A stretch of DNA of 64,000 nucleotides from NCBI GenBank assembly GCA_964562525.1, contig CAZLTL010000010.1, positions 15,389 through 79,388 of the forward strand, written 5' to 3'. The notes beneath the pieces were generated by a model. The model saw only the letters and a program-made list of their open reading frames with translations, was not told the DNA's origin and ran no database searches. This document shows positions 40,553 through 59,293 of this stretch, in pieces (the stretch's first letter is position 1; every line of letters starts with the position of its first letter). The DNA comes from an uncultured bacterium (GTDB lineage: Bacteria; Omnitrophota; Omnitrophia; Omnitrophales; Aquincolibacteriaceae). Position numbers and translations under genes: made by a program.

Positions 40553-40572
40553 TTAAGATAAGCTTATCTTAA
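40553..40572. promoter_or_regulatory. 20-bp perfect palindrome TTAAGATAAGCTTATCTTAA (predicted Rrf2/NsrR-type operator), 20 bp upstream of the truncated Rrf2 gene
   Basis: Identical 20-mer at 56972-56991; same GATAAGCTTATC core at 58253-58270 and 58775-58794, each 15-45 bp upstream of a start codon. Confidence 0.6.
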
Positions 40573-40592: not shown

Positions 40593-40847
40593 GTGCTATA
40601 TTCGAAAACTTGTGAGTATGCAATTCGGGCATTGGCCTATATTGCGTCAAAAGACGATGCTTTAACTACAGCCACTGTTGAAGTGAAGAAAGCCACGGTG
40701 ATACCCGGACCTTATTTATCGAAAGTGTTTGGGGTTCTGGTTAGAAAGACAATTTTGAAAGCAAAGCAAGGGCCGGGGAGCAGCTTTTCTTTTGCACGAG
40801 ATTTCAAAGAAATCTCACTTTTAAATCAAAAAAAGAAAAAAACATGA
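40593..40847 (+). CDS. Rrf2-family transcriptional regulator, truncated paralog (N-terminal wHTH only, Cys ligands absent)
   Basis: 84 aa. First ~70 aa are near-identical to the N-terminus of the 155-aa Rrf2 protein at 58288 (MLYSKTCEYAIRALAYIAS...GPYLSKVFGVLVRK). It ends in KKKKT within A7 tracts before the three-Cys segment; GTG start; stop overlaps the next gene (ATGA). Confidence 0.6.
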   Translation: MLYSKTCEYAIRALAYIASKDDALTTATVEVKKATVIPGPYLSKVFGVLVRKTILKAKQGPGSSFSFARDFKEISLLNQKKKKT

Positions 40848-41593
40848 TCACAAAAAAACAACGGCCCGAAACCTTATTCGAAATACCTCAGGTTTTGATT
40901 CAATCGATTCGAGCGAATTCGGACTTATCGAAATTGCCGGCTGATGCGATTGAAGATTTGGCGAAACAAGCGGCACGCAGGAAGTTTGTCCGCCGACAAA
41001 TTATTTTTGAAGCCGGTCAGCCCGCGCAGGATGCTTGGATTTTGATTAGCGGTAAAGCGGTGCTGGGCTATACGGCGCTCTCGGGGGCTTCTTCTGCGAC
41101 TTGCGTGGCGGGACCGGGAGATTTGTTCTGCTGCCTGCCGATTTTGGACGGCGAAGGTTATCCCGTTACGGCGATCAGTGAAAAGAAAAGCGAAGTTCTT
41201 ACGATTCCGCTTGCTGTTTTTAAGCAAATGCTTTGGCAGCATCCGGAAGTTTTTCAGTCTGTGTTAAAACGGATGTCCGCTAGTTTAAGAGCGGTTGAGT
41301 GCGGGCATTGTCACCGTGTTGATCGTGTTTCGGTAAGAATTGCGCGCACTTTGCTTGATTTAAGCCTAAAGCATCAGGATGTGATTCCGCTAACCAAGTG
41401 GGATATCGCGCGGCTTTCCGGAACTACGGTTGAGACGACGATTCGCGTGATGGCAGAAATGAAAAAGAAGAAAGCGATTGCCGGGGCAAAAGAAGCGATC
41501 AAAATTTTAGATTTTGATAAGCTGCGTGATTTCCTTACCGAATCCGATCAAGATTCAAGCGGCTGCGCCTCGCAAACCAAAAAAAGAAAATAA
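40844..41593 (+). CDS. Crp/Fnr-family transcriptional regulator (Dnr/NnrR-like; no FNR N-terminal Cys cluster)
   Basis: N-terminal cNMP-binding beta-roll (RRQIIFEAGQPAQDAWILISGKA) and C-terminal HTH (ARLSGTTVETTIRVMAEM); translationally coupled to the truncated Rrf2. Confidence 0.8.
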   Translation: MITKKQRPETLFEIPQVLIQSIRANSDLSKLPADAIEDLAKQAARRKFVRRQIIFEAGQPAQDAWILISGKAVLGYTALSGASSATCVAGPGDLFCCLPILDGEGYPVTAISEKKSEVLTIPLAVFKQMLWQHPEVFQSVLKRMSASLRAVECGHCHRVDRVSVRIARTLLDLSLKHQDVIPLTKWDIARLSGTTVETTIRVMAEMKKKKAIAGAKEAIKILDFDKLRDFLTESDQDSSGCASQTKKRK

Positions 41594-42450: not shown

Positions 42451-44478
42451 TTAAATAACCGGTGAAAACTCACCGGCTTGTTTTTGAGCTATGATTTCAT
42501 CGTCGCAAGTCGGGCAAAATTCATGTTCTCCTTTCAGATAACCGTGCTTGGGGCAAATCGAAAAAGTAGGTGTAATGGTGATATAAGGCAGCTTAAAATT
42601 TTCAAGCGCACGCCGCACGAGCTTACGGCAAGCGTCTGCATTTGAAAGCCGCTCATTCATGTAAAGATGCAGCACTGTTCCGCCGGTATATTTGGTTTGC
42701 AAAGCATCTTGCCGCATTAAAGCTTCAAACGGATCATCCGTCAGCCCCACGGGTAATTGCGACGAGTTGGTGTAATAAGGCCGCTCAGGTGTTCCGGCTT
42801 GCAGAATTTGCGGGAAGCGTTTCGCATCTTCTTTGGCGAAGCGGTAAGTGGTGCCTTCGGCCGGCGTGGCTTCCAGATTGTAGAGATGTCCGGTTTCTTC
42901 CTGAAATTCTCGAATGCGCGTGCGGACATGGTCAAGCAGACGAATGGCAAAAGCATGGCCCCACTCACTCGCAATATCGGTTCGGCCGTCGGTGAAATTG
43001 CGAATGCATTCATTAATCCCATTGACCCCGATGGTGGAAAAGTGATTGCGCAAAGTCCCGAGATAGCGTTTGGTGTAAGGCAATAATCCGCCGTCAATCA
43101 AGCGCTGGACATATTTACGCTTCATTTCCAAACTTTCTTTGGCGAGCTGCATCAGATAGTCCACTTTTTCAAGCAAGGCGGTTTCATTACCTTTGTAAAG
43201 GTAACCCAAGCGCGCGCAGTTGATTGTAACCACTCCGATCGAGCCGGTTTGCTCGGCCGATCCGAAGAGGCCGTTGCCGCGTTTCAAAAGCTCACGCAAA
43301 TCGAGCTGCAGTCGGCAGCACATGGAACGAATTTGATTCGGCTTCATATCTGAGTTTAAAAAATTTTGAAAATAAGGGAGCCCGTATTTTGCGGTGAGCT
43401 CGAATAAAAGTTCGCTATTAGGATGATCCCAAAGAAAATCGGGTGTGATGTTGTATGTGGGAATCGGAAAAGTGAAAATGCGGCCACGGCGGTCGCCCTG
43501 CAGCATGACTTCCAGATAAGCTTGGTTGATGGTATCCATTTCTTTTTGCAATTCGCCGTAAGTAAAATCCATTTCTTTGCCGCCGACAAAAGGTTTTTCC
43601 TGCCGCAAATCTTCGGGGCAAACCCAATCGAAAGTAACATTGGTAAACGGAGTTTGTGTGCCCCAGCGTGAAGGAACATTGAGGTTATAAATAAACTCCT
43701 GCATTTGCTGTTTGACTTGAGCATGAGTGAGTTTGTCCGTGCGCACGAAGGGAGCTAAATAGGTGTCGAAAGAAGAAAAGGCTTGAGCGCCGGCCCATTC
43801 ATTTTGCAGGGTTCCGAGAAAATTCACCATTTGCCCCACCGCGGCCGAGAGATGTTTGGGCGGAGCCGCCTCCACTTTTCCGGGGACACCGTTGAAGCCT
43901 TCGCGTAAAAGTGTTTTAAGAGACCATCCCGCGCAATAACCACACAGCATATCAAGATCATGAATATGAATATCCGCGTCGCGATGCGCTTTGCCGATGG
44001 CTTCGGTATAAACATGCGAAAGCCAATAATTCGCAACCACTTTGCCGGATAAGTTAAGGATGAGTCCGCCGAGCGAATAACCTTGGTTGGCGTTTGCGTT
44101 CACACGCCAGTCGAGACGGTCTAAATATTCATTCACGGTGGAAGCGACATCGACCACAGTGCGCGCATCTTCGCGTGCGACGCGCCGTTTTTCGCGGTAA
44201 ATGACATAGGCTTTTGCTGTGCGCGGATAATTGGATGTGATTAAAACCTGTTCGACAATGTCCTGAATTTCTTCGATGGAAATTTCCTGTGGCGCACGAT
44301 GATCAATCACTTTGATGGCTTGGCGCGCCAAGATAAGAGCTTCTTCGTTGTCAATTTCTCCGGTGGCTTGGGCTGCTTTTTGAATGGCGCGATGAATTCG
44401 AACTCCATCAAATGAATTTTTTGAGCCATCGCGTTTGCGGACGGCAGGAATGTTTTTTGGGGTTAACAGATCCGACAT
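42451..44478 (-). CDS. nrdD: anaerobic ribonucleoside-triphosphate reductase
   Basis: N-terminal ATP-cone (MSDLLTPKNIPAVRKRDGSKNSFDGVRIHRAIQKA), large glycyl-radical barrel, C-terminal CPKHG...CPTCDDEI zinc ribbon. Start chosen at ATG 44478 (AGGAGA ribosome-binding site upstream); the ORF track extension to 44670 is unsupported. Confidence 0.9.
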   Translation of the reverse strand: MSDLLTPKNIPAVRKRDGSKNSFDGVRIHRAIQKAAQATGEIDNEEALILARQAIKVIDHRAPQEISIEEIQDIVEQVLITSNYPRTAKAYVIYREKRRVAREDARTVVDVASTVNEYLDRLDWRVNANANQGYSLGGLILNLSGKVVANYWLSHVYTEAIGKAHRDADIHIHDLDMLCGYCAGWSLKTLLREGFNGVPGKVEAAPPKHLSAAVGQMVNFLGTLQNEWAGAQAFSSFDTYLAPFVRTDKLTHAQVKQQMQEFIYNLNVPSRWGTQTPFTNVTFDWVCPEDLRQEKPFVGGKEMDFTYGELQKEMDTINQAYLEVMLQGDRRGRIFTFPIPTYNITPDFLWDHPNSELLFELTAKYGLPYFQNFLNSDMKPNQIRSMCCRLQLDLRELLKRGNGLFGSAEQTGSIGVVTINCARLGYLYKGNETALLEKVDYLMQLAKESLEMKRKYVQRLIDGGLLPYTKRYLGTLRNHFSTIGVNGINECIRNFTDGRTDIASEWGHAFAIRLLDHVRTRIREFQEETGHLYNLEATPAEGTTYRFAKEDAKRFPQILQAGTPERPYYTNSSQLPVGLTDDPFEALMRQDALQTKYTGGTVLHLYMNERLSNADACRKLVRRALENFKLPYITITPTFSICPKHGYLKGEHEFCPTCDDEIIAQKQAGEFSPVI

Positions 44479-44607
44479 GTTTTCTCCTGTGAATAGTAGT
44501 ACATAAAAAATAAACCACCAGATACGGTAGTTTACGGGTGTTTTATTTCGATCTTGTATGACGCAAATCATATGAAGCAAAAAAAGATTCGTTGAAAATA
44601 TCTCCTT

Positions 44608-45021
44608 ATGCAAAACAAAGAGATCAAACCTCTCATCTATGCCTGTTCTGGGTGCTCCAATGCCGGGCAAATGTCCAACTGGATTGCGGTTCGTATTGAT
44701 CGACTTGGCGGCGCAGAAATGTCCTGCATGACCGGCGTCGGCGGAGGTGTGCTCGCACTTGTCAACAAAGCCCGAACACGAAAAAAAATTGTCATCGAGG
44801 GCTGCAAACTCAGTTGTGCTTCAGCTTGCCTGCGTCAGCAAAATTTAGAAGCCGAGATGACTTTGAATTTACAGGATTGGGGTGTCATTCGGCGTGAACA
44901 TGACGATTTTGATCAGGCCGTGGCTGAAAAATTGGTGGAGCAAGTGATCGCCCAAATGCAGGCAAAAAGGCTTTGGAAATCAAGTTCTGAGGATGGCGGA
45001 GAAAAGAGGGCGGCATCATGA
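44608..45021 (+). CDS. small Cys-rich protein, possibly DGC-domain-like metal-binding protein
   Basis: 137 aa; IYACSGCSNAGQ ... IEGCKLSCASAC pattern resembles the DGC/zinc-chelating family; first gene of a tightly packed six-gene plus-strand operon. Confidence 0.45.
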   Translation: MQNKEIKPLIYACSGCSNAGQMSNWIAVRIDRLGGAEMSCMTGVGGGVLALVNKARTRKKIVIEGCKLSCASACLRQQNLEAEMTLNLQDWGVIRREHDDFDQAVAEKLVEQVIAQMQAKRLWKSSSEDGGEKRAAS

Positions 45022-46463: not shown

Positions 46464-47547
46464 TCAATTTGATTTTAATCAAAAGCCTTTTTTGGTGATT
46501 TGGGAAACGACACGCGCTTGTGATTTAGCCTGTGTGCATTGTCGCGCCTGTGCTCAACCATTGCCCGCGCCCGATGAATTGACAACGGAACAGGGCAAAA
46601 TGCTTTTGCGTCAGATTCAGGAGGCGGGAGCACCGTTGGTTGTTTTTAGCGGTGGCGATGCGTTGAAACGACCCGATATCTTTGAGTTGATTCGTGAAGC
46701 CAAGCGTTTGCGTCTGCGCGCGGCGGCAATTCCCGCGGTGACGCCGGCATTGACGCCTGAGGTTTTTAAAGAGTTTAAAGCGGCTGGTTTGGATCAGTTG
46801 GCGTTTAGTTTGGATGATGCTGACCCGGTTGTTCATGATCAATTTCGCCGTACGCCCGGAGTTTTTGACCGGACGCTGGAAGCGGTTCGTCTTGCGCGGG
46901 AGGCGGGGCTGGGTGTGCAGATTAATTCGCTGGTGAATGTTCATAATCAGGATCGTTTGGAGCCGTTAATGCGACTGATGGAAGGCTTGGACATTGTTTT
47001 TTGGGAGGTTTTCTTTTTAGTGCCGATGGGGCGCGGAAAAGATGTGGAAGTGATGACCCCGGAACTTTTTGACGCGGCATTTAAAAAGATTTATGCATTT
47101 GGGAAGCGTGTTTCTTTTATCATCAAAGTTACCGAAGCGCCGCATTACCGCAGATATTTTCTTGAGCAGGAAGAAAAACAAGAAGCTCGAAAAGTGGCGC
47201 TTTTAGGATCGAGCGCGCATGGCAAAAAAAATGTGCGACAACAAGCCGGTCGTGTGAATTCAGGGAAAGGATTTGCGTTTGTTTCTTATCGCGGCGATGT
47301 TTATCCCAGCGGTTTTCTCCCGATCGCGACCGGGAATATTCTTCAAACACCGATCGGTGAAATTTACCGCAATCATCCGGTGTTTCGCGAACTTCGAAAT
47401 GAATCGCTTTTAAAAGGTCGGTGCGGTCTTTGTGAATATCGTGAAACTTGCGGCGGCTCGCGCGCAAGAGCCTACGCGCTGACGGGCGACTATTTGGCGG
47501 AAGACCCGACCTGCGCTTATCAGCCGGCTTGCGTGCTTAAAACATGA
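46450..47547 (+). CDS. radical SAM / SPASM-domain protein (AhbD/NirJ-like)
   Basis: FLVIWETTRACDLACVHCRA (CxxxCxxC) and C-terminal SPASM/twitch CGLCEYRETCGGSRARAYALTGD...DPTC. Start placed at the internal ATG 46450 (MPIHDQ); ORF track opens at 46321 inside the HemY-like gene. Confidence 0.7.
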   Translation: MPIHDQFDFNQKPFLVIWETTRACDLACVHCRACAQPLPAPDELTTEQGKMLLRQIQEAGAPLVVFSGGDALKRPDIFELIREAKRLRLRAAAIPAVTPALTPEVFKEFKAAGLDQLAFSLDDADPVVHDQFRRTPGVFDRTLEAVRLAREAGLGVQINSLVNVHNQDRLEPLMRLMEGLDIVFWEVFFLVPMGRGKDVEVMTPELFDAAFKKIYAFGKRVSFIIKVTEAPHYRRYFLEQEEKQEARKVALLGSSAHGKKNVRQQAGRVNSGKGFAFVSYRGDVYPSGFLPIATGNILQTPIGEIYRNHPVFRELRNESLLKGRCGLCEYRETCGGSRARAYALTGDYLAEDPTCAYQPACVLKT

Positions 47548-48539
47548 TAAAACCTTCGATGCCTTTGTCCTTGCCGAAATGTGATCAAAAGCTGAAAAGA
47601 AACGGAATTTCTTTTGATCTTGCAATGCGTTTAATTCAGCTTGAAAAAGAAGAAGATGTGCGGGCGGTGATGAATTTAGCAGCCGAACTGACGACTGTGA
47701 TTCATGGTAGGCGTGCGGATCTGTGCCAAATTATGAACGCAAAGAGCGGTCTTTGCGGAGAAGACTGTGGTTTTTGTTCTCAGTCGCTCCGCCATCATTC
47801 TGAAACTGAAAAATTTAAGCTGACTCCACTTGAGATAGCAATCCAAAGAGCGCGAACAGCTCGGGAAAATGGCGCGGAGGAGTTCTGTATTGTGACGTCC
47901 GGTCGCCGATTGAATTCGGAAGAGTTTAAGCGGGTGATCGAAATGATTCGTGAAATTCGAAAGCAAGTTGCCATCAAAGTGGATGTTTCGATTGGTTTTT
48001 TAAGCAGGGAGGAGGCGGTGGCGCTTCGAGAAGCCGGGGCGCATCGTGTAAATCACAATCTTCAAACTTCGCCGGATTTCTACACCAAGGTTGTCAGTAC
48101 GCACTCGTATCAAGACCGCAAAGAAACTTTGCAGGCGATTCGCGGAGCGGGTCTTGAAATTTGTTGCGGAGTGATTTGGGGAATGGGAGAAACTCGTGAA
48201 GATCGCATCCGCTGCGCGTTTGAAATTAGATCTTTTAATCCCGAGTGTGTTCCTGTGAATATTTTGGATCCGCGTCCCGGGACACCGCTTGAGAACCAAC
48301 CTGGTATTGATACCGCGGAAGTTTTAAAAACATTGGCAGTGTATCGGTTGATTTTTCCCCAGACCTGTTTGAGGCTTGCGGCCGGGCGAAAGCGGCAATT
48401 GGGAAAGGATCAAAAAAAGGCATGGAATGCGGGCGTGAACGGATTAATTATCGGAGATTATTTGACGGTTTCAGGTGTGGCACTTGAAGAAGATTTTAGA
48501 ATGCTTAAAGAACTTGGCGTGAAATGGGCGCGACCATAA
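47544..48539 (+). CDS. BioB-family radical SAM protein (biotin-synthase-like)
   Basis: SGLCGEDCGFCSQS (CxxxCxxC), VNHNLQTSPDFY, SYQDRKETL, GLEICCGVIWGMGET and RLAAGRK align with E. coli BioB motifs. The BioB Cys128 ligand position appears to be Asp (IKVDVSIGF) by hand alignment. Confidence 0.75.
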   Translation: MIKPSMPLSLPKCDQKLKRNGISFDLAMRLIQLEKEEDVRAVMNLAAELTTVIHGRRADLCQIMNAKSGLCGEDCGFCSQSLRHHSETEKFKLTPLEIAIQRARTARENGAEEFCIVTSGRRLNSEEFKRVIEMIREIRKQVAIKVDVSIGFLSREEAVALREAGAHRVNHNLQTSPDFYTKVVSTHSYQDRKETLQAIRGAGLEICCGVIWGMGETREDRIRCAFEIRSFNPECVPVNILDPRPGTPLENQPGIDTAEVLKTLAVYRLIFPQTCLRLAAGRKRQLGKDQKKAWNAGVNGLIIGDYLTVSGVALEEDFRMLKELGVKWARP

Positions 48540-48554
48540 AAAATCAAAAATTTT

Positions 48555-49847
48555 ATGCAAAAAGAAATTGATTTAGCCAAACAATCTCAGGGAACTTTAT
48601 ATGTGTTTCTCTCAGAAAAGGATCATCAATGTCTTGAGGAAATTCATCAATGCTATGGTTTGACGCATCAAGATTTGCGCGAATTATGCGAAAACGCACG
48701 TGATCTCGAAATGTGGGGTGAATCTTTTGCCAGCGAATGGAATCGATTTGAACAAGAGGTCAGCCGGGTTTTTTTATCAAGGCAAAGAAAGAAGAGGCTC
48801 ATCGCTCATATTCGGCAAAGGATGGCGGATTTACGCGCTCGGTTAAGGGAATATCCCTCTCAGGATGTTGTTTCGAATCGATGCGAATCAAAACCGCCGC
48901 AAATCACTTGGCAAAAATCTCCGGAAGTAACTTGGGGGAAGTGTCCGGCATCTGTGCCCGCGCTTTTATGCTGTGGTCTGACGACGTTGGAGACAGCGGC
49001 TAACTGTGCATTTGAATGCAGTTATTGCGCGGTAAAACCCTTTTACGGAAATCAAATGGCGATTTATTCGGAATTGCGTCAAAGATTGACCCGCATGGAG
49101 TTGGATCCTAAACGCTATTACCACATCGGGACCGGACAATCTTCGGACTCTTTGGCTTGGGGTGATTCTGGAGGCATTTTAACCGATTTGTGCGAATGGG
49201 CAGCGCAACATCCTCAGGTTTTGCTCGAGCTAAAAACAAAATCAAGCCAAGTAGATTTTTTTTTAAAAAACAAAGTCCCCTCGAATCTGGTTTGTAGCTG
49301 GAGCCTGAACACGCAAAAAGTGATCGAGCATGAGGAGCAACGGACCGCGTCTTTGGAGTCACGTTTGGATGCGGCATGGAAACTTGCCCACAAAGGACAA
49401 AAGGTGGGCTTCCACTTTCATCCGTTGGTGAATTACGAAGGAGGTGCGAAGGAATATGATGCGCTTGCAAAAAAAATACAAAACAAATTCAAATCAGATC
49501 AAATTGCTTTTATCTCGTTTGGGACGCTTGTCTTTGGTAAATCAACTCTGCGCTTAATTCGCGAGCGAGGCGGGGCTGACAAAATTCTTCGGATGGAAAC
49601 GGAAATCGGACCTCACGATAAAGCAACTTATCCGGAGGCAACAAGGGAGTTTCTTTTTCGTGGGATGGTTGACAGTTTTAAAGATTGGCGCGACAAAGTT
49701 TTTATGTATTTGTGTATGGAAGATTCGGAGATGTGGCGCAAAGTTTTTGGATGGAGCTATGATAGCTCCCTTGCTTTTGAGCGAGATTTCTTTTCGAAAA
49801 TAGGTCCTCAAGTGGGGCTCCGTTTGGCTTCGGGTACCGAGATTTAA
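48555..49847 (+). CDS. radical SAM protein, spore-photoproduct-lyase (SplB)-like family, with ~130-aa N-terminal extension
   Basis: CAFECSYC (CxxxCxxC) at ~residue 155; the downstream region is SPL-like; the N-terminal domain is unrecognised. Confidence 0.55.
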   Translation: MQKEIDLAKQSQGTLYVFLSEKDHQCLEEIHQCYGLTHQDLRELCENARDLEMWGESFASEWNRFEQEVSRVFLSRQRKKRLIAHIRQRMADLRARLREYPSQDVVSNRCESKPPQITWQKSPEVTWGKCPASVPALLCCGLTTLETAANCAFECSYCAVKPFYGNQMAIYSELRQRLTRMELDPKRYYHIGTGQSSDSLAWGDSGGILTDLCEWAAQHPQVLLELKTKSSQVDFFLKNKVPSNLVCSWSLNTQKVIEHEEQRTASLESRLDAAWKLAHKGQKVGFHFHPLVNYEGGAKEYDALAKKIQNKFKSDQIAFISFGTLVFGKSTLRLIRERGGADKILRMETEIGPHDKATYPEATREFLFRGMVDSFKDWRDKVFMYLCMEDSEMWRKVFGWSYDSSLAFERDFFSKIGPQVGLRLASGTEI

Positions 49848-49849
49848 AA

Positions 49850-50887
49850 ATGACAGCGATTCAATTTGAGCGCGGAAACATATCCTTAGTTGAAGCGGAG
49901 GTTCTTCTTCAAAACGGCAGTGAAGAACAATGGAAGGCTCTTTTTTTGTATGCACGCGAATTAACCGAAATAAATTTCGACCACAAAATCGACTTCTTCG
50001 CACCGCTTTATTACTCAGATTATTGCGTGAATGATTGTGCTTACTGCTCTTTTCGAATTAAAAACCGTCAATTTTCAAGAAAAGTGCTTTCAGTCAAAGA
50101 ATTTTTAAAAGAGGCGGAATATCTTTGGCAGGAAGGGCACAGGTCGATTCTTTTGGTTGCGGGTGAGCATACTCCCGTTGCGGGAGCTGCTGCGTTGGTT
50201 GAGTATGCAAAAGCTTTGCATGCCTCAGAGTTTTTCTTTGAATTAGCCGCTGAGACTGGCGCGCTCACTTCTGAAAGCTATGCACAGCTTGTTAAGGCAG
50301 GGATCTCACGTAATTTGCTTTACCAAGAAACCTATGATCGCCAAGTTTACGCGCAGGTCCATTTATCCGGACCCAAGCAGGATTTTGATTGGCGATACGA
50401 AGCTCCGCTCCGCGCCCTTCAGGCGGGCGTCCAAAGTTTTGGCATGGGAGTCTTGCTAGGGCTTGCGCCGGATTGGAGAAAAGAGATCTTGGAGCTTTTC
50501 CGGCATGCCATGGCTTTAAAAGCCAAAGCTACGCGCCCTTTCTTTTTGACTTTTTCTTTTCCGCGTTTGTGTTCAGCCCAAGGTAGTGACATCGCTTCTT
50601 TCCCGGTGACCGATCAGGATTATGAAAAAATTATTGCGCTCACGCGGGTTGTTTTTCCCGATGCCGGGATTGTTTTAAGTACGCGCGAAACAGCTGCGTT
50701 TAGAAAAGAATTATTGCAAAAAAAAATGGGTATTACGCATATGAGCGCGGGGGTTTCAACGACGGTTGGTGGCTACACGAAAGCAAAAAAGATGAGCCTG
50801 GGGCAATTTGATATTTCAGATGAGCGGCCGCTGAAAGAAATTGCAACGGAAATGACCAAAATGGGATTTATTTTAAACCGCGTCTAG
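49850..50887 (+). CDS. radical SAM protein of the ThiH/HydE/MqnC-like family
   Basis: PLYYSDYCVNDCAYCSF (CxxxCxxC in the YSNYCxNxCxYC context typical of the ThiH/HydE/HydG/Mqn group); 345 aa. Confidence 0.6.
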   Translation: MTAIQFERGNISLVEAEVLLQNGSEEQWKALFLYARELTEINFDHKIDFFAPLYYSDYCVNDCAYCSFRIKNRQFSRKVLSVKEFLKEAEYLWQEGHRSILLVAGEHTPVAGAAALVEYAKALHASEFFFELAAETGALTSESYAQLVKAGISRNLLYQETYDRQVYAQVHLSGPKQDFDWRYEAPLRALQAGVQSFGMGVLLGLAPDWRKEILELFRHAMALKAKATRPFFLTFSFPRLCSAQGSDIASFPVTDQDYEKIIALTRVVFPDAGIVLSTRETAAFRKELLQKKMGITHMSAGVSTTVGGYTKAKKMSLGQFDISDERPLKEIATEMTKMGFILNRV

Positions 50888-51290
50888 CTTTTTTTGCGTC
50901 ATGGATCATCCGTTTAACCATGAGAGTGGCCGTTGCCTTGGCAACTAACTTTCGGTTTAATCCGCGGATTTCACATTCCAAAAACGAGAGCGTTTTCCCT
51001 TGCGATACGACATGCGCTCTTGCGTGGAGGACTGTGTTGATAAAGACAGGCCGAATAAATTGAATCTTCAATTCAACTGTCACTCCGGTTATATTTTTTT
51101 TGAATGAAGTTAGGAAAGCTTTTCCCATCGTTTCGTCGGCAAGCATGCAAAGCATGCCCCCGTGGATATGCTTGAAAATATTAACATGCTCTTCACTCAC
51201 TTTAAATCGGCACACGGCCTTACCGTTCGAAGGGCTTATGACATGCAGACCCAAAAGCTGTGTGGCAGGAGAGTGATCGATTTTTTTCAT
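50868..51290 (-). CDS. PaaI/YbgC-type hotdog-fold thioesterase
   Basis: HGGMLCMLADETMGKAF hotdog active-site motif, 140 aa; ATGA-coupled downstream of the B12-radical-SAM gene. Confidence 0.75.
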   Translation of the reverse strand: MKKIDHSPATQLLGLHVISPSNGKAVCRFKVSEEHVNIFKHIHGGMLCMLADETMGKAFLTSFKKNITGVTVELKIQFIRPVFINTVLHARAHVVSQGKTLSFLECEIRGLNRKLVAKATATLMVKRMIHDAKKARRGLK

Positions 51291-53404
51291 GAGAGAGTGG
51301 GGTGGTTAACGTCGCGTTGATAGAATCCGACTTCGAAAATGATGGCCCACACAAACCGAACGAGCAACGCCGTTTCTTGGAGGCTGACTTTTATCAACTC
51401 CACGAGGTTTAATCTCAAAATATGCCCGTGTTTTAAGTTGAGCTGAAAACTTTTCCAGTAATGATTTAAAAAACTTCGATTCGGAAGCAGAGCGATAGAA
51501 AATAAATTCAGTTTTTTTATCCAAAGTTGAAGTTTTGAAGGGATGCTGTGGGAGGTATTCTTTTCCGGCGTTATTGCGGCATGTCGGTAAAGAGATTGGA
51601 GGGTTGACAATTTGATTTTACGCCAATCGGTGAATTGGGTTTGAAGTTTTCCAAGTTCGAACAGAACCTTTTTTTCAAGTCGGCTACGTGGGCGAGTGAT
51701 AAGCCAAACCTCTTCCATTTCAATCAATAGGCGGCACCAACCGACTAATGTTTCGATGCGTGCCCATAAGCGTTGCTTAAAATGAACCCACGGGTTTTCT
51801 CGGGGGAAGAGACCGCGGCGTGTCAGGCGATCTTTAAAACGAAAAAACCCATGAATCATGGGGTGCCCTTTCTCAACCTGAATGGAATTTTTGCACCAAA
51901 TGAAATTAAGAAAGATATCCCAGTACCGCCTAGGGTGAATGTGGGTAAGAATTCTTTTCAAATTTTCAGGGGCGTAAAAAATTTGCCATGCTGATTCATA
52001 CACACGAGTCCATTCCCCGGGACGCATTTGAGCATGGCGATAAGTTTCGTGAAATGTGTCAAAATTATTTAAGTCAGCATCAATCATGAAGCCACGGTTC
52101 TTTCCATGGACATAGTCCATGGATCCAGGGAGAGGTGTCAGCATAAAAAAAGATGCTTGCTCGGCGTTCAACTCCAACAAGTTTGCCATGTTGCGTTGAA
52201 CGGATTCGGCAGTGTCAAACGGGAAACCAATAATGTAGGCTAGGTGGGTTGCAATGGCTGCGCTATGATAGGCCTCAATCATGGTCGAAAACTCGGAAAC
52301 TTTATTTTGTTTTTTAGAAGCAGCTTTGAGATTTTCTTCGTTGAGGCTTTCCATGCCGATGAAAACTTGCCGACAGCCCGCTTGAGAGGCCTTGGTGATA
52401 AAGTTTTGAATTTTATGAGAGAGCGTATCGACCTGAATCATGAATGTGATTGCAATATTCTCATTTTTCCGCAACTGAATCAGTCCATCGAAAATGAGTT
52501 CCCAGTTTTTATTCCGTGAAAAATTGTCATCCGTAAAAAAATAGTAAGATATTTTCTTCTCTCGATAATTATCGCGAATCCAATCGATAATGCGGTTGAC
52601 GGCACGAAAACGCATTTGGCGACCCTGAACATTGATGACTGTGCAGAAGCTGCATTGAAAAGGGCAGCCGCGGCCGCAATCCAGCGTCGCAAAATGTGAG
52701 ACGGCATAACGCGAGAGGAGATTCTTTGGAATTTCAGGCATAGGAGCCGCTGAAAGATCAGGCGCTTCATGCAAAAAATTGTAAACAGGTTGCGTTGAAT
52801 TGGTTAAAACATCGCGTAAAATTTCTTCCCAGCGATGTTCAATTTCACCGGCAACGAGAATAACGCCTGCGGATTTCAAATCAGCCAATTCAGGCGAGAG
52901 ATTAGCGAGAGTTGAAATCACGCCGCTGACATGAAAGCCCCCGATCATAACGTCGATATTACTTTTCTTTAATTCCAAAGCCAGGTCGTAAGCACGCGGG
53001 AATTGATTGGATTGAACTCCCACAAGACAAACGAGAGTATGCGTATTTTTTTTACGACTCTCGCGGATAATCCGTTGTGTGTCAACCTTCTGAACCGTTT
53101 CATCAATAGCCTCAACTTGCCATTTCAAATTAGGTCCAAGAGCTTGCCGTTTGCGAACATCCTCCGTTAGTCCGTAGAGGCAGGCAAGGGTATTGCTCGG
53201 CAATACACCTTTCCAGTAGCGTATGACATAGCCGTCATCATCATATTTTGAAGGCTTGATCAGATGAATCTTCAGCCGACGCGGAGAGTGGGAATCGGTT
53301 AAGTGTTTAGCGGATGACGCCGCATTTTTTTCTACATCGGCACTACACTGCTTACAAATCGGAACACGCTTCGACAAAGTATTAAATCTCCACAGGTTAG
53401 ACAA
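51287..53404 (-). CDS. B12-binding-domain radical SAM protein (class B-type) with long C-terminal extension
   Basis: N-terminal cobalamin-binding Rossmann-like region (LVCLVGVQSNQFPRAYDLALELKKSNIDVMIGGFHVSG), then CGRGCPFQCSFC (CxxxCxxC); 705 aa. Confidence 0.7.
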   Translation of the reverse strand: MSNLWRFNTLSKRVPICKQCSADVEKNAASSAKHLTDSHSPRRLKIHLIKPSKYDDDGYVIRYWKGVLPSNTLACLYGLTEDVRKRQALGPNLKWQVEAIDETVQKVDTQRIIRESRKKNTHTLVCLVGVQSNQFPRAYDLALELKKSNIDVMIGGFHVSGVISTLANLSPELADLKSAGVILVAGEIEHRWEEILRDVLTNSTQPVYNFLHEAPDLSAAPMPEIPKNLLSRYAVSHFATLDCGRGCPFQCSFCTVINVQGRQMRFRAVNRIIDWIRDNYREKKISYYFFTDDNFSRNKNWELIFDGLIQLRKNENIAITFMIQVDTLSHKIQNFITKASQAGCRQVFIGMESLNEENLKAASKKQNKVSEFSTMIEAYHSAAIATHLAYIIGFPFDTAESVQRNMANLLELNAEQASFFMLTPLPGSMDYVHGKNRGFMIDADLNNFDTFHETYRHAQMRPGEWTRVYESAWQIFYAPENLKRILTHIHPRRYWDIFLNFIWCKNSIQVEKGHPMIHGFFRFKDRLTRRGLFPRENPWVHFKQRLWARIETLVGWCRLLIEMEEVWLITRPRSRLEKKVLFELGKLQTQFTDWRKIKLSTLQSLYRHAAITPEKNTSHSIPSKLQLWIKKLNLFSIALLPNRSFLNHYWKSFQLNLKHGHILRLNLVELIKVSLQETALLVRFVWAIIFEVGFYQRDVNHPTLS

Positions 53405-53455
53405 ATTGCCACTAGATTCGAGAGCTTATTCTAAGCGTTGTTAGTTCGATTCTCC

Positions 53456-53471
53456 TATGATCGGGATCATA
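53456..53471. promoter_or_regulatory. palindrome TATGATCGGGATCATA in the divergent promoter region between the B12-radical-SAM operon and fabB-like gene
   Basis: 7-bp perfect arms TATGATC/GATCATA; a second TATGAT-N4-ATCATA site lies 120 bp away (53576-53591). Confidence 0.45.
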
Positions 53472-53575
53472 TTAGTTGTTGGGGAGGGGGATAGAAACTC
53501 TGTTCAGATTAGAGACATCGTGCTTTGTGAATCAGCTTCAAAATGCTAAACACCCACCCCCAAGTTATCGGCGAG

Positions 53576-53591
53576 TATGATGCAGATCATA
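53576..53591. promoter_or_regulatory. second TATGAT-N4-ATCATA palindrome (TATGATGCAGATCATA)
   Basis: 6-bp perfect arms; ~80 bp upstream of the fabB-like start. Confidence 0.45.
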
Positions 53592-53672: not shown

Positions 53673-54899
53673 ATGATGCGCAGAACGGTGGTGACGGGGA
53701 TCGGGGTTGTATCATGTCTGGGGAATAATCAGCGCGAAGTTTTTGACTCGCTTTATCACGGGCGTTCCGGAATTTCCTACCAAGAAGAATATCGGAGACG
53801 GGGTCTTCGCAGCCAAATCGCGGGAAGCATTCGCATTCAACCGGCTGATTACATTGACAGAAAATCACTGCGCTTTATGGGAAGCGCGGCGGCTTATGCG
53901 TGTATTGCGATGCAGCAAGCTGTAGAGGATGCGGGCCTGAAGCTTGAATCGATTTCAGATGATCGAATTGGGGTTGTCGCGGGTTCAGGCGGAGCGTCTT
54001 CCTGCAATCTAGTTGATGCTGCGGACTCGTTAAGAGCGCAAGGTATACGCGGTGTGGGGCCTTTTCGTGTGCCGCGTACGATGAGCAGTACGGTTTCGGC
54101 TTGTCTGGCCAATTATTTCAAAATAAGAGGGGTGAATTATTCGATGACATCGGCATGCGCGACCAGTGCGCATTGCATCGGACATGCGATGGAACTGATT
54201 CAGCTTGGAAAACAAGATCTTGTTTTTGCGGGCGGCGGCGAAGAAGAGCATTGGACTTTGAGCATGCTCTTTGATGCGATGGGTGCGCTTTCGTCCGAAT
54301 ATAACACTGTTCCGGAAAAAGCGTCGCGGCCGTTTGATATGAGTCGCGATGGGTTTGTGATTGCGGGCGGCGGCGGAATTTTGGTTTTAGAAGAACGCGA
54401 ACGGGCTTTGCGGCGGGGAGCAAAAATTTATGCAGAGCTGGCGGGTTACGGCGCAAATTCGGATGGTTTTGATATGGTGCTTCCCTCAGGGGAAGGTGCC
54501 GCGCGTTGTATGCGTCAAGCGATTCAATCCCTTGGACAGGATGAGTCGGTAGACTATGTCAACGCTCATGGTACGGGAACCCAGCAAGGAGATTTGAAAG
54601 AAATGGCGGCGATACGGGAAGTGTTCGGTACGAAAATTCCCCGCATCAGTTCGACGAAGTCTTTGTCCGGCCATTCGCTTGGTGCCGCCGGAGTTCACGA
54701 AGCTATTTACAGTTTAATCATGATGGAAAAGGGTTTTGTTGCCGCTTCAGCCAATATTGATCATTTGGATTCTGCATTTGAAAATATGCCGATTGTGCGC
54801 CAAAGACAAGAGGGTGTGAAGCTGGATGTTGTGATGTCCAACAGCTTTGGATTTGGCGGGACCAATGCTTGCCTGCTATTTCGGCGTGATCAAAAATAA
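53673..54899 (+). CDS. fabB: 3-oxoacyl-[ACP] synthase I (FabB-type KAS)
   Basis: Near-colinear with E. coli FabB from the N-terminus ([27 protein letters not shown] vs MKRAVITGLGIVSSIGNNQQEVLASL); active-site Cys in [16 protein letters not shown], His-His in NAHGTGT and SGHSLGAAG; FGFGGTNA C-terminus. Confidence 0.9.
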
Positions 54900-54910
54900 A
54901 AAGGAATTTC

Positions 54911-56725
54911 ATGTCAGTTCATTCATTTCATATCCCTGTGATGGGGACCGGTTTTACGATCGATACCCCTCTTAAGGTGGCGCGTTACGGCATTTCCTCG
55001 GTGATGTCGGTTGATGACAATCTGATGGAGAAATTGCGCGAATATTATTCAGCGCAAGAGGGGCTTCCGTTTCAGCCGATTGCTAAAAACTTACTTGATT
55101 CCCGGGCACGGAGAATTACGGCTTATTTAAATTTAGTGCATGACTTGGTTCAAAAGCAATTTTCAGAATTAAAGCAATCTTCGTTTGAGCCTGGAAGCGA
55201 AATTACAAAATATTTTGAGTTGCTGGCGGATGACAGTGAACTCAAAAAAGAGTATAGCCGAATGATGGCGATGGAAGCGGGTGATGCAAAGATTCAGCTT
55301 CAAAGTGAATTGCGTCAAAAGCTAGAGGTCGGCTCGATCGATGTTAATTTGCTCACCAAGCTCGATCGTGAAAACTATCAGAAGGGAGAAAAACTTTCGC
55401 GTGATTATGCCGATGGCGTGGCGGCTTTGCGCGGCTTTGCCCAAAGTAAATTAGAGTCTTCAGTTGTTTTTTCGGCGGGAATTAATCCGTATCTGTACGG
55501 TTCTTTAGAGCAGTATTCTGATTTTTTTCCTGATCCGCTGGGTGCGGTAAAAAAGAAAATTATTATCAAAGTCAGTGATTTCCGTTCGGCAGTGGTGCAG
55601 GGACGGTTTCTGGCCAAAAAAGGGTTATGGGTTTCCGAGTTCCGCGTCGAGTCGGGGCTGAATTGCGGAGGGCATGCCTTTGCGACAACGGGGCAGCTGC
55701 TGGGAGTCATTTTGGAAGAATTCAAAAAAGAGCGGGAAAGTTTTTCCGCGGAGCTTTTTGAAATTTATAAAAAAGCACTTCTTGCAAAAGGAAAAATGTG
55801 CCCTTCGGTTAAACCTCGATTGAGAGTTACAGCTCAGGGAGGCGTGGGAACTTTTGCCGAACATCAATTTTTATTGCGGCACTATCAGTTGGATAGCGTG
55901 GGCTGGGGAAGTCCGTTTCTTTTGGTGCCGGAGGTGACATGTGTGGATCCGGATTCTTTGACTAAGTTAAGTCAAGCCGACGAAAACACCGTTTATTTGA
56001 GTGATTTGTCTCCGCTTGGCGTACCGATTTATAGTCTTAGAAATTCGGCGAGTGAAGCGATGCGTCTTCAGCGTATTGCTGCGGGAAAGCCCGGGAGTCC
56101 GTGTTTGAATAAGTATATGGCTTATAACACGGAATTTCCCGGAGAACCTCTGTGTGCGGCTTCCTCAGAGTATCAATCAAAAAAGATCGCGCAATTAAAG
56201 ACTCAAGATTTAAGCCCTGAAAAATACAGCGAAGAATACAAAAAAATCGTAGATAAAGCCTGTGTTTGTCATGATCTCGGGGAAGGTGCGCTTCTTAAAT
56301 ATGGTATTCCGTCCCGCAGTGTTAAGCCTGTTCCGGCGGTTTGTCCCGGGCCGAATATTGTTTATTTTTTTAAAATCGCGACTCTGCGCGAAATGGTGGA
56401 TCATATTTATGGTCGGATGAATTTGCTCAAGAAGGAAAAAAATCGGCCGCACATGCTGATTAATGAATTCCGGATCTATATTGATTTTTTCAAGAAAAAG
56501 AGGGCGCAGTTTTCAGAGCCTTTGAATGATAAAGATAAAAACTATTTGTCGGATTTCTTAACAAATTTGAATGGTTGTTTGAATTATTATTTTCAGATGA
56601 TTGACCAACTGTTTGAAGAGTCGCTTGCAGCCAGAGATTCTTTTCTTGAAAGTCTGAAGGCTTTTCAACAAGACGTGGACTCTTTGACAGCTTCTTTGAT
56701 TGGACTTCGTTTTGGCACAAGCTAG
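54911..56725 (+). CDS. hypothetical protein (604 aa), possibly with N-terminal NMO/FabK-like flavoprotein segment
   Basis: No firm family. The N-terminal IPVMGTGFTIDTPLKVARYGISSV loosely resembles the [26 protein letters not shown] start of nitronate-monooxygenase-like TIM barrels. GLNCGGHAF motif mid-protein; follows fabB-like after an 11-nt gap. Confidence 0.45.
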   Translation: MSVHSFHIPVMGTGFTIDTPLKVARYGISSVMSVDDNLMEKLREYYSAQEGLPFQPIAKNLLDSRARRITAYLNLVHDLVQKQFSELKQSSFEPGSEITKYFELLADDSELKKEYSRMMAMEAGDAKIQLQSELRQKLEVGSIDVNLLTKLDRENYQKGEKLSRDYADGVAALRGFAQSKLESSVVFSAGINPYLYGSLEQYSDFFPDPLGAVKKKIIIKVSDFRSAVVQGRFLAKKGLWVSEFRVESGLNCGGHAFATTGQLLGVILEEFKKERESFSAELFEIYKKALLAKGKMCPSVKPRLRVTAQGGVGTFAEHQFLLRHYQLDSVGWGSPFLLVPEVTCVDPDSLTKLSQADENTVYLSDLSPLGVPIYSLRNSASEAMRLQRIAAGKPGSPCLNKYMAYNTEFPGEPLCAASSEYQSKKIAQLKTQDLSPEKYSEEYKKIVDKACVCHDLGEGALLKYGIPSRSVKPVPAVCPGPNIVYFFKIATLREMVDHIYGRMNLLKKEKNRPHMLINEFRIYIDFFKKKRAQFSEPLNDKDKNYLSDFLTNLNGCLNYYFQMIDQLFEESLAARDSFLESLKAFQQDVDSLTASLIGLRFGTS

Positions 56726-56893
56726 AAGCGGTTTCATAAGTATTCATAAGCGTCGAATTGACATAGACTTCGGCTGGCTGCGTCGTCCTGCATCGACAAT
56801 GTGCTTTGGACATTGCCTGCTTCGGACTCCTTGCCATCCTCGTCTCTCTCAATTCTTTGGCTTTACGACTACTTATGAAACCGCTTCTAGCAT
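56720..56893. repeat. MITE-like element / large hairpin: 21-bp perfect terminal inverted repeats (GCTAGAAGCGGTTTCATAAGT ... ACTTATGAAACCGCTTCTAGC) flanking ~130 bp
   Basis: The arms are exact reverse complements; the left arm overlaps the last 6 nt of the 604-aa ORF including its stop; the inner flanks continue as imperfect inverted repeats. Confidence 0.55.
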
Positions 56894-56971: not shown

Positions 56972-56991
56972 TTAAGATAAGCTTATCTTAA
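56972..56991. promoter_or_regulatory. 20-bp perfect palindrome TTAAGATAAGCTTATCTTAA (predicted Rrf2/NsrR-type operator), 45 bp upstream of the RIC gene
   Basis: Identical to 40553-40572. Confidence 0.6.
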
Positions 56992-57744: not shown

Positions 57745-58095
57745 ATGCCCATTGATCCAGTGATAAAATCAGAGGATGGTGTCAATGTCATTCCCGTTTC
57801 GACGATACGTGTTTTTGGTTCCCAAATCTGGCTCTTTGATTATTTTATGAAGAAGACAGAGCGCAATCTTCGGATCAATCCCCAGGCAGGGTTGGTTTGC
57901 TGGAAAGCCATGGACGCTTATCAATTTAAAGGCAAAAGTGGATACAAAACATCCGGAATGGATTTTGACCGCGCCAAAGAGATTACGGCGGAATTAAATC
58001 CTGAAAGAAGACTGAAGGGGCTTGTTGTTTTTACGCCCGAGCAGATATTTTTAGTGAGCCCTCAAAGCGATTCGACTAAAAATATTCTGAAATAA
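57745..58095 (+). CDS. pyridoxamine-5'-phosphate-oxidase-like (FMN-binding split-barrel) small protein
   Basis: 116 aa, beta-rich; pattern consistent with the PNPOx-like / general stress protein 26 fold; low certainty. Confidence 0.45.
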   Translation: MPIDPVIKSEDGVNVIPVSTIRVFGSQIWLFDYFMKKTERNLRINPQAGLVCWKAMDAYQFKGKSGYKTSGMDFDRAKEITAELNPERRLKGLVVFTPEQIFLVSPQSDSTKNILK

Positions 58096-58252
58096 AAATA
58101 TCCCGGCCACAGATTCATAAATCAGCGATTCCTTTTGGCCGTGACGCGTACCGTGTGAATATAACTTCAACCCGCTGAAGAGTCGCTTTTCCATAGCTGC
58201 GCATTTGTGATGTTTCGTAATCTTTAAAAAACACTTGCCTTTGTTTCTAAAT

Positions 58253-58270
58253 CAAGATAAGCTTATCCTT
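58253..58270. promoter_or_regulatory. imperfect copy of the GATAAGCTTATC palindrome (CAAGATAAGCTTATCCTT), 18 bp upstream of the Rrf2/NsrR-like gene
   Basis: Shares the 12-bp core with the two perfect 20-mers. Confidence 0.55.
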
Positions 58271-58287
58271 ATTTAGCTGAGGTTAAA

Positions 58288-58774: not shown

Positions 58775-58794
58775 AGGATAAGCTTATCTTTAAT
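58775..58794. promoter_or_regulatory. imperfect copy of the palindrome (AAGGATAAGCTTATCTTTAA), 11 bp upstream of the hemerythrin gene
   Basis: GATAAGCTTATC core conserved. Confidence 0.55.
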
Positions 58795-58804
58795 TGGAGG
58801 ATAA

Positions 58805-59293
58805 ATGAATATTGAATCAAAAAATCAAGTTTTAACGGCCTATTTTGAAGCAGATCATGATCGTTTGGATGCGCTTTTAAATAACTTTGCTAATCTGAAA
58901 GACTCGGATTTTTTAGCGGCAAAGCCTTTTTTTAAAACCTTTCTTCAGGGGTTGAAGCGGCACATTGTGTGGGAAGAGGATGTTTTGTTTCCGGCTTTTG
59001 AGGCGAAGACCGGAATGCGTAGCGCCGGGCCGACGGAAGTGATGCGAATGGAGCATCGTTTGATCGGTCAAGCTTTAGAGCGGCTGCATGATAAAGTTCG
59101 CCGTGCCGATGCGGTTTGTGAGGATGAAATTGAACGGTTGATTGAAACATTAGAGCCGCATAATCAAAAAGAAGAACAAGTGCTTTATCCTGCATTGGAT
59201 TCAATGTTAAGCTGTGAAGAGGCAGCGGAGATTTTTCGCGCTATGGAGGCCATTCCGGCGGAGCGCTATCTCACTTGTTGCGGTGTGCATTAA
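58805..59293 (+). CDS. hemerythrin-like (HHE cation-binding) domain protein
   Basis: H/E ligand pattern HIVWEEDVLFPAFE, MEHRLIGQALERLHD, HNQKEEQVLYPALD; 162 aa; heads the qNOR operon. Confidence 0.75.
   Translation: MNIESKNQVLTAYFEADHDRLDALLNNFANLKDSDFLAAKPFFKTFLQGLKRHIVWEEDVLFPAFEAKTGMRSAGPTEVMRMEHRLIGQALERLHDKVRRADAVCEDEIERLIETLEPHNQKEEQVLYPALDSMLSCEEAAEIFRAMEAIPAERYLTCCGVH

Follow-up and report, generated by a model that had tools for sequence, protein, structure and literature searches.

A FabB-type ketoacyl synthase paired with a distant relative of FabK and FabX in an Omnitrophota genome: a possible FabA-independent route to unsaturated fatty acids

The DNA considered here, referred to below as the window, is a 64,000-nucleotide stretch of contig CAZLTL010000010.1 (assembly GCA_964562525.1) from an uncultured bacterium of the Omnitrophota. 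Within it two adjacent genes on the forward strand encode a beta-ketoacyl-acyl carrier protein (ACP) synthase I (KAS I) of 408 amino acids, FabB (53673..54899), and a protein of 604 amino acids (54911..56725) that is predicted, from its modelled fold, its Foldseek matches and a set of collinear FabK motifs, to combine a flavin mononucleotide (FMN)-binding triose-phosphate isomerase (TIM) barrel with a Cys-rich region. A first-pass annotation, made from the sequence and its open reading frames (ORFs), had described the two ORFs, and they are confirmed as described, both on the plus strand and 11 nt apart. The 11-nt spacer (54900..54910, +) can be read to contain AAGGAA, a Shine-Dalgarno-like ribosome-binding site, an arrangement that argues for co-transcription of the two genes. 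The sole terminator-like match near the junction is weak, consisting of a 6-pair stem with a poor T-run (54855-54873) that falls within the 3' end of fabB. The host genome is also non-proteobacterial, as had been supposed, since the aspartyl-tRNA synthetase is 92% identical to a protein of a Candidatus Omnitrophica metagenome-assembled genome (MAG) and all but one of the named matches are to Omnitrophica.

The ketoacyl synthase and the 604-residue protein

The ketoacyl synthase is, on the grounds of its sequence, a genuine FabB (KAS I) in a non-proteobacterium. Both ketoacyl-synthase domains are found by a Pfam search, and the protein passes the NCBIfam FabB equivalog NF005935 (657.4 bits, with a cutoff of 630) whilst failing the FabF equivalog TIGR03150 (398.9 bits, as against a cutoff of 493.75). 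Its best matches in the PDB are KAS I enzymes, including 7pps at 573 bits and E. coli FabB at 504 bits, with FabF reaching 296 bits at most. Alignment with the E. coli reference sequences, taken from strain MG1655, gives 58.7% identity to FabB and 39.8% to FabF, and bears out the earlier view that the protein is of the E. coli FabB type and collinear with it from the N-terminus, FabB-type indels included. In this alignment the Cys-His-His triad (Cys163, His298 and His333) is retained together with Lys328 and Phe392, and position 107 is the Gly that is typical of FabB, where FabF has Ile. More broadly, the FabB proteins of loci that carry the same pair of genes are 66-71% identical to gammaproteobacterial FabB, such as that of Halomonas or Cellvibrio. 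The expected companion of such an enzyme is missing, however, in that tblastn with E. coli FabA as the query detects no FabA-like sequence anywhere in the 64-kb window, in keeping with the first-pass annotation.

What, then, is the protein encoded next to FabB? It has no Pfam or NCBIfam match, and neither phmmer nor a profile search against the PDB returns anything beyond weak helical noise. The first-pass annotation had noted a resemblance of its N-terminus to the nitronate monooxygenase (NMO)/FabK/FabX type of TIM barrel. At the level of sequence this goes undetected, as the Pfam NMO model PF03060 leaves the 604-residue protein unmatched and picks up just one of 40 family members, with an E value of only 0.25. 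At the level of fold it is clear, and over a greater extent than had been suggested, with the barrel covering approximately residues 1-360. The AlphaFold (AF2) model, built on 40 homologs, has a mean predicted local distance difference test score (pLDDT) of 89.3 and a predicted template-modelling score (pTM) of 0.90. It depicts an eight-stranded beta/alpha barrel with a helical insertion at residues 36-137, followed by a Cys-rich region, with five cysteines between residues 398 and 478, and a C-terminal three-helix bundle (515-601). When the model is compared with the PDB by Foldseek, all 46 matches at E<=0.001 belong to the NMO/FabK superfamily, at identities of 9-17%. They include PfaD, the enoyl reductases (ERs) DfnA and MlnA of trans-acyltransferase polyketide synthases, H. 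pylori FabX, FabK and PA1024, along with nitronate monooxygenases and, from the fatty-acid synthases of fungi and mycobacteria, the enoyl-reductase domains. The model therefore points to an FMN-type TIM barrel and to a very remote position of the protein within the NMO/FabK/PfaD/FabX superfamily.

The register of the catalytic motifs was taken from an hhalign comparison of the family with a FabK profile, assembled from a genuine FabK (from loci L052 and L073) and three FabK sequences of the PDB; the E value of 0.064 is non-significant, and the alignment serves for motif register only. In this register SAGxNP of the 604-residue protein lies on SAGNP of FabK, QGG on AGG, GWGTPFLLVPE on VQxGTRFxxSxE and SGLNCGGH on EGFEAGGH, which places His255 on the catalytic His144. 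Conservation was assessed over 54 sequences, comprising the window protein and 53 divergent representatives that are 28-51% identical to it. His255 is conserved in 53 of these, Gly253 and Gly254 in 52-53, and Gln309, Gly310 and Gly311 likewise in 52-53. Beyond the barrel there are five near-invariant cysteines, namely Cys398, Cys415 and Cys453 (54/54), Cys451 (53/54) and Cys478 (52/54), with Cys297, Cys344 and Cys556 of the window protein falling outside the invariant columns. By analogy with FabX, the five-Cys region probably forms a cysteine-ligated metal site, likely an iron-sulfur (Fe-S) cluster. Profile searches weakly match the C-terminal three-helix bundle (about 520-595) with the amphipathic helices of apolipoprotein A-I (E about 0.01-0.05), and the bundle might present a lipid- or membrane-facing surface.

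Partnership with FabB and the wider family

The order of fabB followed by a gene of the 604-residue family, either directly or with only a small gene for a DGC-domain protein between them, is found in seven distinct sequenced contexts. These are the window with its near-identical strain L001, L005/L009 (an Omnitrophota MAG), L089, L095, L096/97, L102 and L108, of which L005, L095 and L102 have the DGC gene in the middle. The two genes are separated by 0-70 nt or by the DGC gene only, whereas the other neighbours differ among the seven contexts. The pairing is conserved in the clade nearest to the window, where family proteins are 56-100% identical, and five further pairings are suggested by contigs of the same length and source that recur in the lists of FabB and 604-family homologs. 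In none of the fabB-604 loci is FabA found in the flanking DNA (flanks of up to 64 kb), and no other core fab gene lies near these operons.

A further observation comes from close relatives of these FabB proteins. Three sister genes, whose products are 67-68% identical to the window ketoacyl synthase, lie in fabA-fabB operons with no 604-family gene nearby. Two of them, P0145 (Omnitrophica CG1_02) and its sister P0128, belong to an environmental clade and the third, P0138, to a gammaproteobacterial clade. In a neighbour-joining tree most of the 604-paired FabB genes make up the environmental clade, apart from the gammaproteobacterial one, and the window enzyme forms a separate branch with its closest relative, P0122. 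Two predictions were drawn from the tree, that P0128 would be paired with FabA and P0124 with a 604-family gene, and both came true. Among closely related FabB genes, FabA and the 604-family flavoenzyme thus alternate as the operon partner and never occur together, which is the pattern expected if both do the same job.

The family as a whole is large. A word-indexed search was saturated with homologs of around 600 amino acids (8,000 scored), and a Pfam domain is present in none of the 120 matches listed. Clustering at 50% identity gives 1,427 representatives, 413 of which fall below an E value of 1e-30, and the family is present in at least 598 species genomes, spread over Omnitrophota, Planctomycetota, many Bacteroidota, Ignavibacteria/Melioribacter, Calditrichaceae, Desulfocapsa, Zixibacteria and Latescibacterota. 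A single-protein scan of metagenomes yielded six loci. No description of the family was found in the literature searched.

Natural fusions offer some insight into what the family may do. In P0277 (981 amino acids) the family domain is joined to a PlsC-type acyltransferase, which ties the family to acyl-lipid metabolism, and in P0251 a single gene of 1,167 amino acids (L103, 3042-6545) joins it to a diflavin reductase with flavodoxin, FAD and NAD(P)-binding domains, which implies that NADPH electrons enter the enzyme through a flavodoxin-like carrier. The latter is one case among the 150 representatives listed. Both fusions retain all of the invariant residues. In P0258 a TetR domain stands at the N-terminus of a family protein, and may reflect a merge in gene calling.

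Gene neighbourhoods include further lipid genes in places. In L007 the family gene is followed after 8 bp by a gene for a PlsC-type acyltransferase, and in L008 the order is desaturase, family gene, acyltransferase (in a shorter, 108-aa call) and hemerythrin. L102 has a cNMP-binding protein, a fatty-acid desaturase, a Crp-type helix-turn-helix (HTH) protein, FabB, the DGC protein, the family gene and hemerythrin. In two Chitinophagaceae genomes (L052 and L073) a gene for a genuine FabK (403 bits with FabK of P. gingivalis) lies at a distance of 4-5 kb, and there the 604-family protein cannot be the sole FMN-dependent enoyl reductase. Lipid context as a family-wide trait was considered and rejected, as lipid neighbours are not enriched across 80 diverse genomes.

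Other neighbours are involved in cofactor synthesis. A divergent bioB flanks the family gene at nine loci in Omnitrophota and Planctomycetales. A convergent thiC adjoins it at nine loci of the 80-genome set (represented by L072), and nadA/nadB are close by in some Flavobacteriaceae. Such neighbourhoods were noted in L014, L017, L024, L026, L027, L033, L048, L065 and L072, near position 10000 in most of them. The neighbours of the family gene are thus often Fe-S or radical S-adenosylmethionine (SAM) genes of cofactor biosynthesis, reflecting either a functional link or conserved backbone synteny. Chorismate synthase, an enzyme that requires reduced FMN, is encoded directly downstream in two Omnitrophota contexts (L005 9870-10793 and L094 7976-8956), the second of which also has NnrS and two radical-SAM genes near the family gene.

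Predicted regulation and the surroundings of the operon

Upstream of fabB lie two perfect palindromes that are predicted to be sites for a regulator of the Crp/FNR family. The proximal one, TATGAT-GCAG-ATCATA (53576..53591), is 82-97 bp upstream of the fabB start and is kept with one mismatch in strain L001, and the distal one, TATGAT-CGGG-ATCATA (53456..53471), is inside a strain-variable block. A related palindrome, TATGAC-GCAG-GTCATA, precedes fabB in L108. The 12-nt core of the palindrome occurs five times in the window, where 1.3 occurrences are expected, and the 14-nt form occurs eight times with up to one mismatch, against 2.1 expected, a count that no shuffled sequence reached. The exact TGAT-N4-ATCA core was also considered as a general fabB box and rejected, since it is absent upstream of fabB at other loci, which have related but different palindromes.

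The motif seen upstream of fabB recurs as a ATGACGCAAATCAT box (44558..44571) in the divergent promoter region between nrdD, for the anaerobic ribonucleotide reductase, and a gene encoding a Cys-rich DGC-domain protein (PF08859, 96 bits in Pfam; 44599..44967, +), whose relatives at other loci separate fabB from the 604-family gene. In L089, TATGAC-AGGC-GTCATA is found in the promoter region of nrdD. The longest nrdD ORF of the window (42451-44670, -) begins with TTG at 44670 and overlaps the DGC gene by about 70 nt, with the ATP-cone starting from residue 76; the true start is probably further downstream, which would leave a divergent promoter with the ATGACGCAAATCAT box within it. The fabB-604 operon is probably under the control of a Crp/FNR-family regulator, much like the anaerobic ribonucleotide reductase.

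A candidate for this regulator of fabB and the 604-residue gene is encoded in the window at 40844..41593 (+), with cNMP-binding and HTH_Crp_2 domains in Pfam. It is 61% identical to a regulator encoded directly downstream of the 604-family gene in L089, and a counterpart likewise follows the operon in L096/97. The window regulator and that of L089 (13066-13836) have unusual Cys/His motifs in common (FCC... and ECGHCH), which could bind a metal, haem or an Fe-S sensor and differ from the classical N-terminal Cys motif of FNR.

A second kind of palindrome, RGATA-AGCT-TATCY, occurs four times in the window (40553-40572, 56972-56991, 58252-58271 and about 58776-58791), upstream of the genes for the Crp-type regulator, RIC, an Rrf2 regulator and hemerythrin. 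Three of the four copies match a longer 20-nt form for which 0.03 matches are expected. In L095 and L102 a box of this type overlaps the -10 region predicted upstream of fabB, and L096 and L089 have it there in degenerate form. It looks like the operator of a regulon for nitric oxide (NO) or Fe-S stress. Perfect or near-perfect palindromes of the CRP type, (T/A)GTGAC-N4-GTCAC(A/G), were also observed. In L102 (7202 and 13635) they precede the desaturase operon and hemerythrin, in L005 (6312) one lies 94 bp upstream of fabB, and in L095 (5004) one is situated between the DGC and family genes. Taken together, the predicted sites suggest that the fabB-604 operon shares with the anaerobic ribonucleotide reductase and the NO-stress genes a response to the status of oxygen or NO.

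On its upstream side the operon borders a 6.0-kb block (47538-53571) that is missing from the approximately 99%-identical strain L001. The block contains BioB-like (47544-48539), SPL-like (48555-49847) and ThiH/HydG-like (49850-50887) radical-SAM genes, as well as a PaaI-type hotdog thioesterase gene (50868-51290, -) and a B12-radical-SAM gene of 705 codons (51287-53404, -). In L108 only a ThiH-like gene stands in its place. The thioesterase, B12-radical-SAM and SPL-like genes have no homologs at any other 604-family locus examined; the B12-radical-SAM protein encoded near the L094 family gene is only 24% identical to that of the window and is not orthologous. A ladderane-type assignment of the window B12-radical-SAM protein was rejected; with the lipid-associated family TIGR04072 it scores 76 bits, where the cutoff is 360.

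On the downstream side a long hairpin, with 29-nt arms that are 93% complementary and lie 113 nt apart (56721..56891, +), starts at the stop codon of the 604-residue gene. It has a fold z-score of -7.3, is unique in the window and could act as a terminator or stabilise the RNA, or could represent a small inserted element. The genes that follow encode RIC, an Rrf2 regulator, a hemerythrin-domain protein (58805..59293, +; identified with Pfam, and also encoded near the 604-family gene in L008, L095, L099 and L102) and NorB. A PNPOx-like ORF after RIC (57745-58095) has 116 codons in the window and 130 in L001 and L003, with a 42-bp indel at 57771. Elsewhere in the window, a 655-aa ORF (25261-27228) has no Pfam match at E <= 1e-5.

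Possible functions and comparison with known systems

To our knowledge, oxygen-independent synthesis of unsaturated fatty acids in most bacteria outside the Proteobacteria and Firmicutes is only partly understood, and the question is whether the 604-residue protein may contribute to it. Within the NMO/FabK/PfaD/FabX superfamily, every member involved in fatty-acid metabolism works at the C2-C3 (enoyl) position of an acyl thioester. We tentatively favour, without holding it to be probable, a reading in which the flavoenzyme provides a FabA-independent and oxygen-independent branch to unsaturated fatty acids in partnership with FabB. In this scheme fabB and the 604-residue gene form a two-gene operon of the Omnitrophota genome, the 604-residue protein would take the place of FabA by supplying cis-3-enoyl-ACP, and FabB would elongate the latter to unsaturated fatty acids, no oxygen being required. 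The cis-3-enoyl-ACP could arise by acyl-ACP dehydrogenation followed by isomerisation of the product, in the manner of FabX/UfaA, or else through a trans-2/cis-3 isomerase that depends upon reduced flavin. Type-2 isopentenyl diphosphate (IPP) isomerase offers an analogy for an isomerase of the second kind, which would also reconcile the scheme with the diflavin-reductase fusion. Replacement of FabA is the best-supported function because FabA and the 604-family gene alternate as the operon partner of FabB; the substrate, the direction of electron flow, the cofactors and the lack of fabA in the remainder of the genome are what we infer.

Several observations weigh against such a role. The absence of fabA applies to flanks of up to 64 kb and not to whole genomes. 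Across the 80 diverse genomes (1.36 Mb of sequence) a ketoacyl synthase gene lies within 10 kb of the family gene in just one, with no desaturases and no PlsC, and the family gene looks monocistronic in 58 of 79 cases, the few operon partners being heterogeneous. The electron input implied by P0251 is harder to square with a dehydrogenase of the FabX type than with a reductase or an isomerase that uses reduced flavin, and the top structural matches are enoyl reductases (PfaD and DfnA), slightly ahead of FabX. Lastly, both the regulatory sites and the cofactors are predictions.

Some of these points lead to the main rival proposal, in which the protein would be a new enoyl-ACP reductase with FabK/PfaD-like chemistry that lacks an NAD(P)H site of its own and receives electrons from flavodoxin or ferredoxin through the Fe-S site. 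Then fabB and its partner would constitute an anaerobic condensation/reduction pair, with FabA encoded elsewhere or with FabB acting as a general elongating synthase. We regard this as somewhat unlikely, even though trans-acting enoyl reductases and FabK come out best in the fold comparison, the protein keeps the FMN motifs and the catalytic His known from FabK, and the fusion in P0251 to a module resembling CysJ or P450 reductase gives a chain running from NADPH to FAD, FMN, Fe-S and FMN. The fusion to, and adjacency with, PlsC is compatible with the production of finished acyl-ACP, and the high conservation and wide distribution of the family suit a housekeeping step. Yet a reductase leaves unexplained both the specific partnership with FabB and the alternation with FabA beside close FabB genes, canonical FabK coexists with the family in some genomes, and the diflavin fusion is that single case. 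A rather more distant proposal is that the protein is a redox or nitrosative-stress enzyme outside fatty-acid synthesis, for instance a detoxifying flavoenzyme or a supplier of electrons to Fe-S and radical-SAM enzymes, and that its adjacency to fabB is synteny without a functional link. In its favour are the RIC, Rrf2, hemerythrin and NorB genes that follow in the window, the RIC, Rrf2, hemerythrin, NnrS, NorQ or rubrerythrin genes near family members in several phyla, the GATA-N4-TATC box shared by the RIC, Rrf2, hemerythrin and Crp-regulator genes and found upstream of fabB in L095 and L102, and the recurrence of BioB, ThiC, NadA and many radical-SAM genes as neighbours. We nonetheless consider it improbable, as the tight pairing with fabB is kept in seven contexts despite their differing neighbours, the fusion with PlsC and the neighbouring desaturases speak for a link to acyl chains, and nearly all of the closest structural relatives act on acyl thioesters.

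Other reactions of acyl chains can be envisaged, such as the saturation or remodelling of unsaturated chains before PlsC-type acylation, or a pimeloyl-ACP step towards biotin. The PlsC fusion and adjacency, the electron input implied by P0251, the nine BioB-flanked loci of Omnitrophota and Planctomycetales and the BioB-like gene of the window are all consistent with this, but there is no precedent and no specific pattern in support, and bioB is encoded on the other strand, making it in our view quite improbable. The first-pass annotation had gone further by suggesting that FabB and the 604-residue protein could form, with the hotdog thioesterase and the B12-radical-SAM protein, a single anaerobic desaturation or lipid-modification module. 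Physical proximity in this one window speaks for the composite, but the thioesterase and B12-radical-SAM genes are on the opposite strand, in the block that strain L001 lacks, and are absent from all other family loci, the L094-linked B12-radical-SAM protein being a remote relative; the score of the window protein is also far below the TIGR04072 cutoff. These two genes are consequently left out, a four-gene module being hardly credible, and what is retained of the earlier idea is its anaerobic unsaturated-fatty-acid component, for which the FabA/604 alternation provides the best support.

If the flavoenzyme does supply cis-3-enoyl-ACP to FabB, it would be a further solution to a classic problem, and would give an annotation to at least 1,400 protein clusters, spread over at least 598 species. 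If it should instead be a flavodoxin-dependent enoyl reductase (ENR), it would represent a new ENR class with relevance to resistance against ENR-targeting antibacterials. Whichever applies, what holds the place of FabA beside FabB is a family of the FabX/UfaA superfamily that is different, larger, far more widespread and invisible to Pfam and NCBIfam. A bolder extension, which we view as unlikely, is that the family of around 600 residues is the missing oxygen-independent enzyme for cis double bonds, an FMN and Fe-S analogue of FabA/FabX primed by flavodoxin-type reductants, across much of the Fibrobacteres-Chlorobi-Bacteroidetes (FCB) and Planctomycetes-Verrucomicrobia-Chlamydiae (PVC) groups as well as in these Omnitrophota. 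This would take in most Bacteroidota outside Bacteroides, Planctomycetota, Ignavibacteriota and others, in which the family is represented by a highly conserved stand-alone gene.

How does the pair compare with systems that are already known? The nearest functional parallel is that of FabX (H. pylori HP0773) and UfaA (N. gonorrhoeae NGO1024), NMO-family acyl-ACP dehydrogenase/isomerases that replace FabA. Such a replacement is reported for both Neisseria and Helicobacter (PMC8626469; also cited in PMC11300592 and PMC4549310), and FabX is reported to depend on a [4Fe-4S] cluster, located in a small subdomain that follows the barrel and takes the position of the NAD(P)H motif of FabK (PMC8626469). 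The 604-residue protein resembles FabX in having a predicted FMN TIM barrel that belongs to its superfamily (Foldseek E 6e-9 to 2e-8, with a target-normalised template-modelling (TM) score of 0.64-0.67), a putative catalytic His in an xGGH motif, a Cys-rich subdomain C-terminal to the barrel and a FabA that is missing from the expected place. It differs in its low identity of 12-14% in the structural alignment, with no sequence or profile match to the PDB entry 7e1q, and in its length of 604 rather than about 360 amino acids, which accommodates the helical insertion (~36-137) and the C-terminal three-helix bundle. The spacing of the cysteines is also different, being C-x16-C-x35-C-x-C-x24-C in the 604-residue protein and C-x3-C-x3-C-x11-C (C300/C304/C308/C320) in FabX. 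Furthermore, the new protein is partnered with FabB, whereas H. pylori is without fabB, and in one member of its family the domain is joined to an NADPH diflavin reductase, a hint that electrons are fed in rather than passed on to O2.

Similar considerations apply to FabK, PfaD and the DfnA enoyl reductase, which give the best structural matches (E 3e-10 to 1e-7). The SAGNP, ExGGH, AGG and GTxF...E motifs of FabK are collinear with those of the 604-residue protein, which nevertheless escapes the Pfam NMO model and has Cys in place of Ala before GGH. FabK, of around 310-330 amino acids, reduces enoyl-ACP with NADH and has its own NAD(P)H region, unlike the 604-residue protein with its roughly 250 extra C-terminal residues containing the five invariant cysteines and the helical bundle. 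With the FabA-FabB pathway of the alpha- and gamma-Proteobacteria the locus has the same FabB in common, as well as a position apart from the main fab cluster, as is the case for E. coli fabA and fabB. The fabA-fabB pair of the Pseudomonas type is a two-gene operon, and fabB with the 604-residue gene is likewise a two-gene unit. The differences are that neither the operon nor the window contains the hotdog dehydratase/isomerase FabA, that a flavoenzyme gene follows fabB and that the host belongs to the Omnitrophota. Finally, E. coli 2,4-dienoyl-CoA reductase, FadH, reduces an enoyl thioester with an FMN TIM barrel, an Fe-S cluster and an FAD/NADPH module, and although its barrel is of a different family, the old-yellow-enzyme type, with no similarity detected, the fusion in P0251 recreates a FadH-like cofactor chain.

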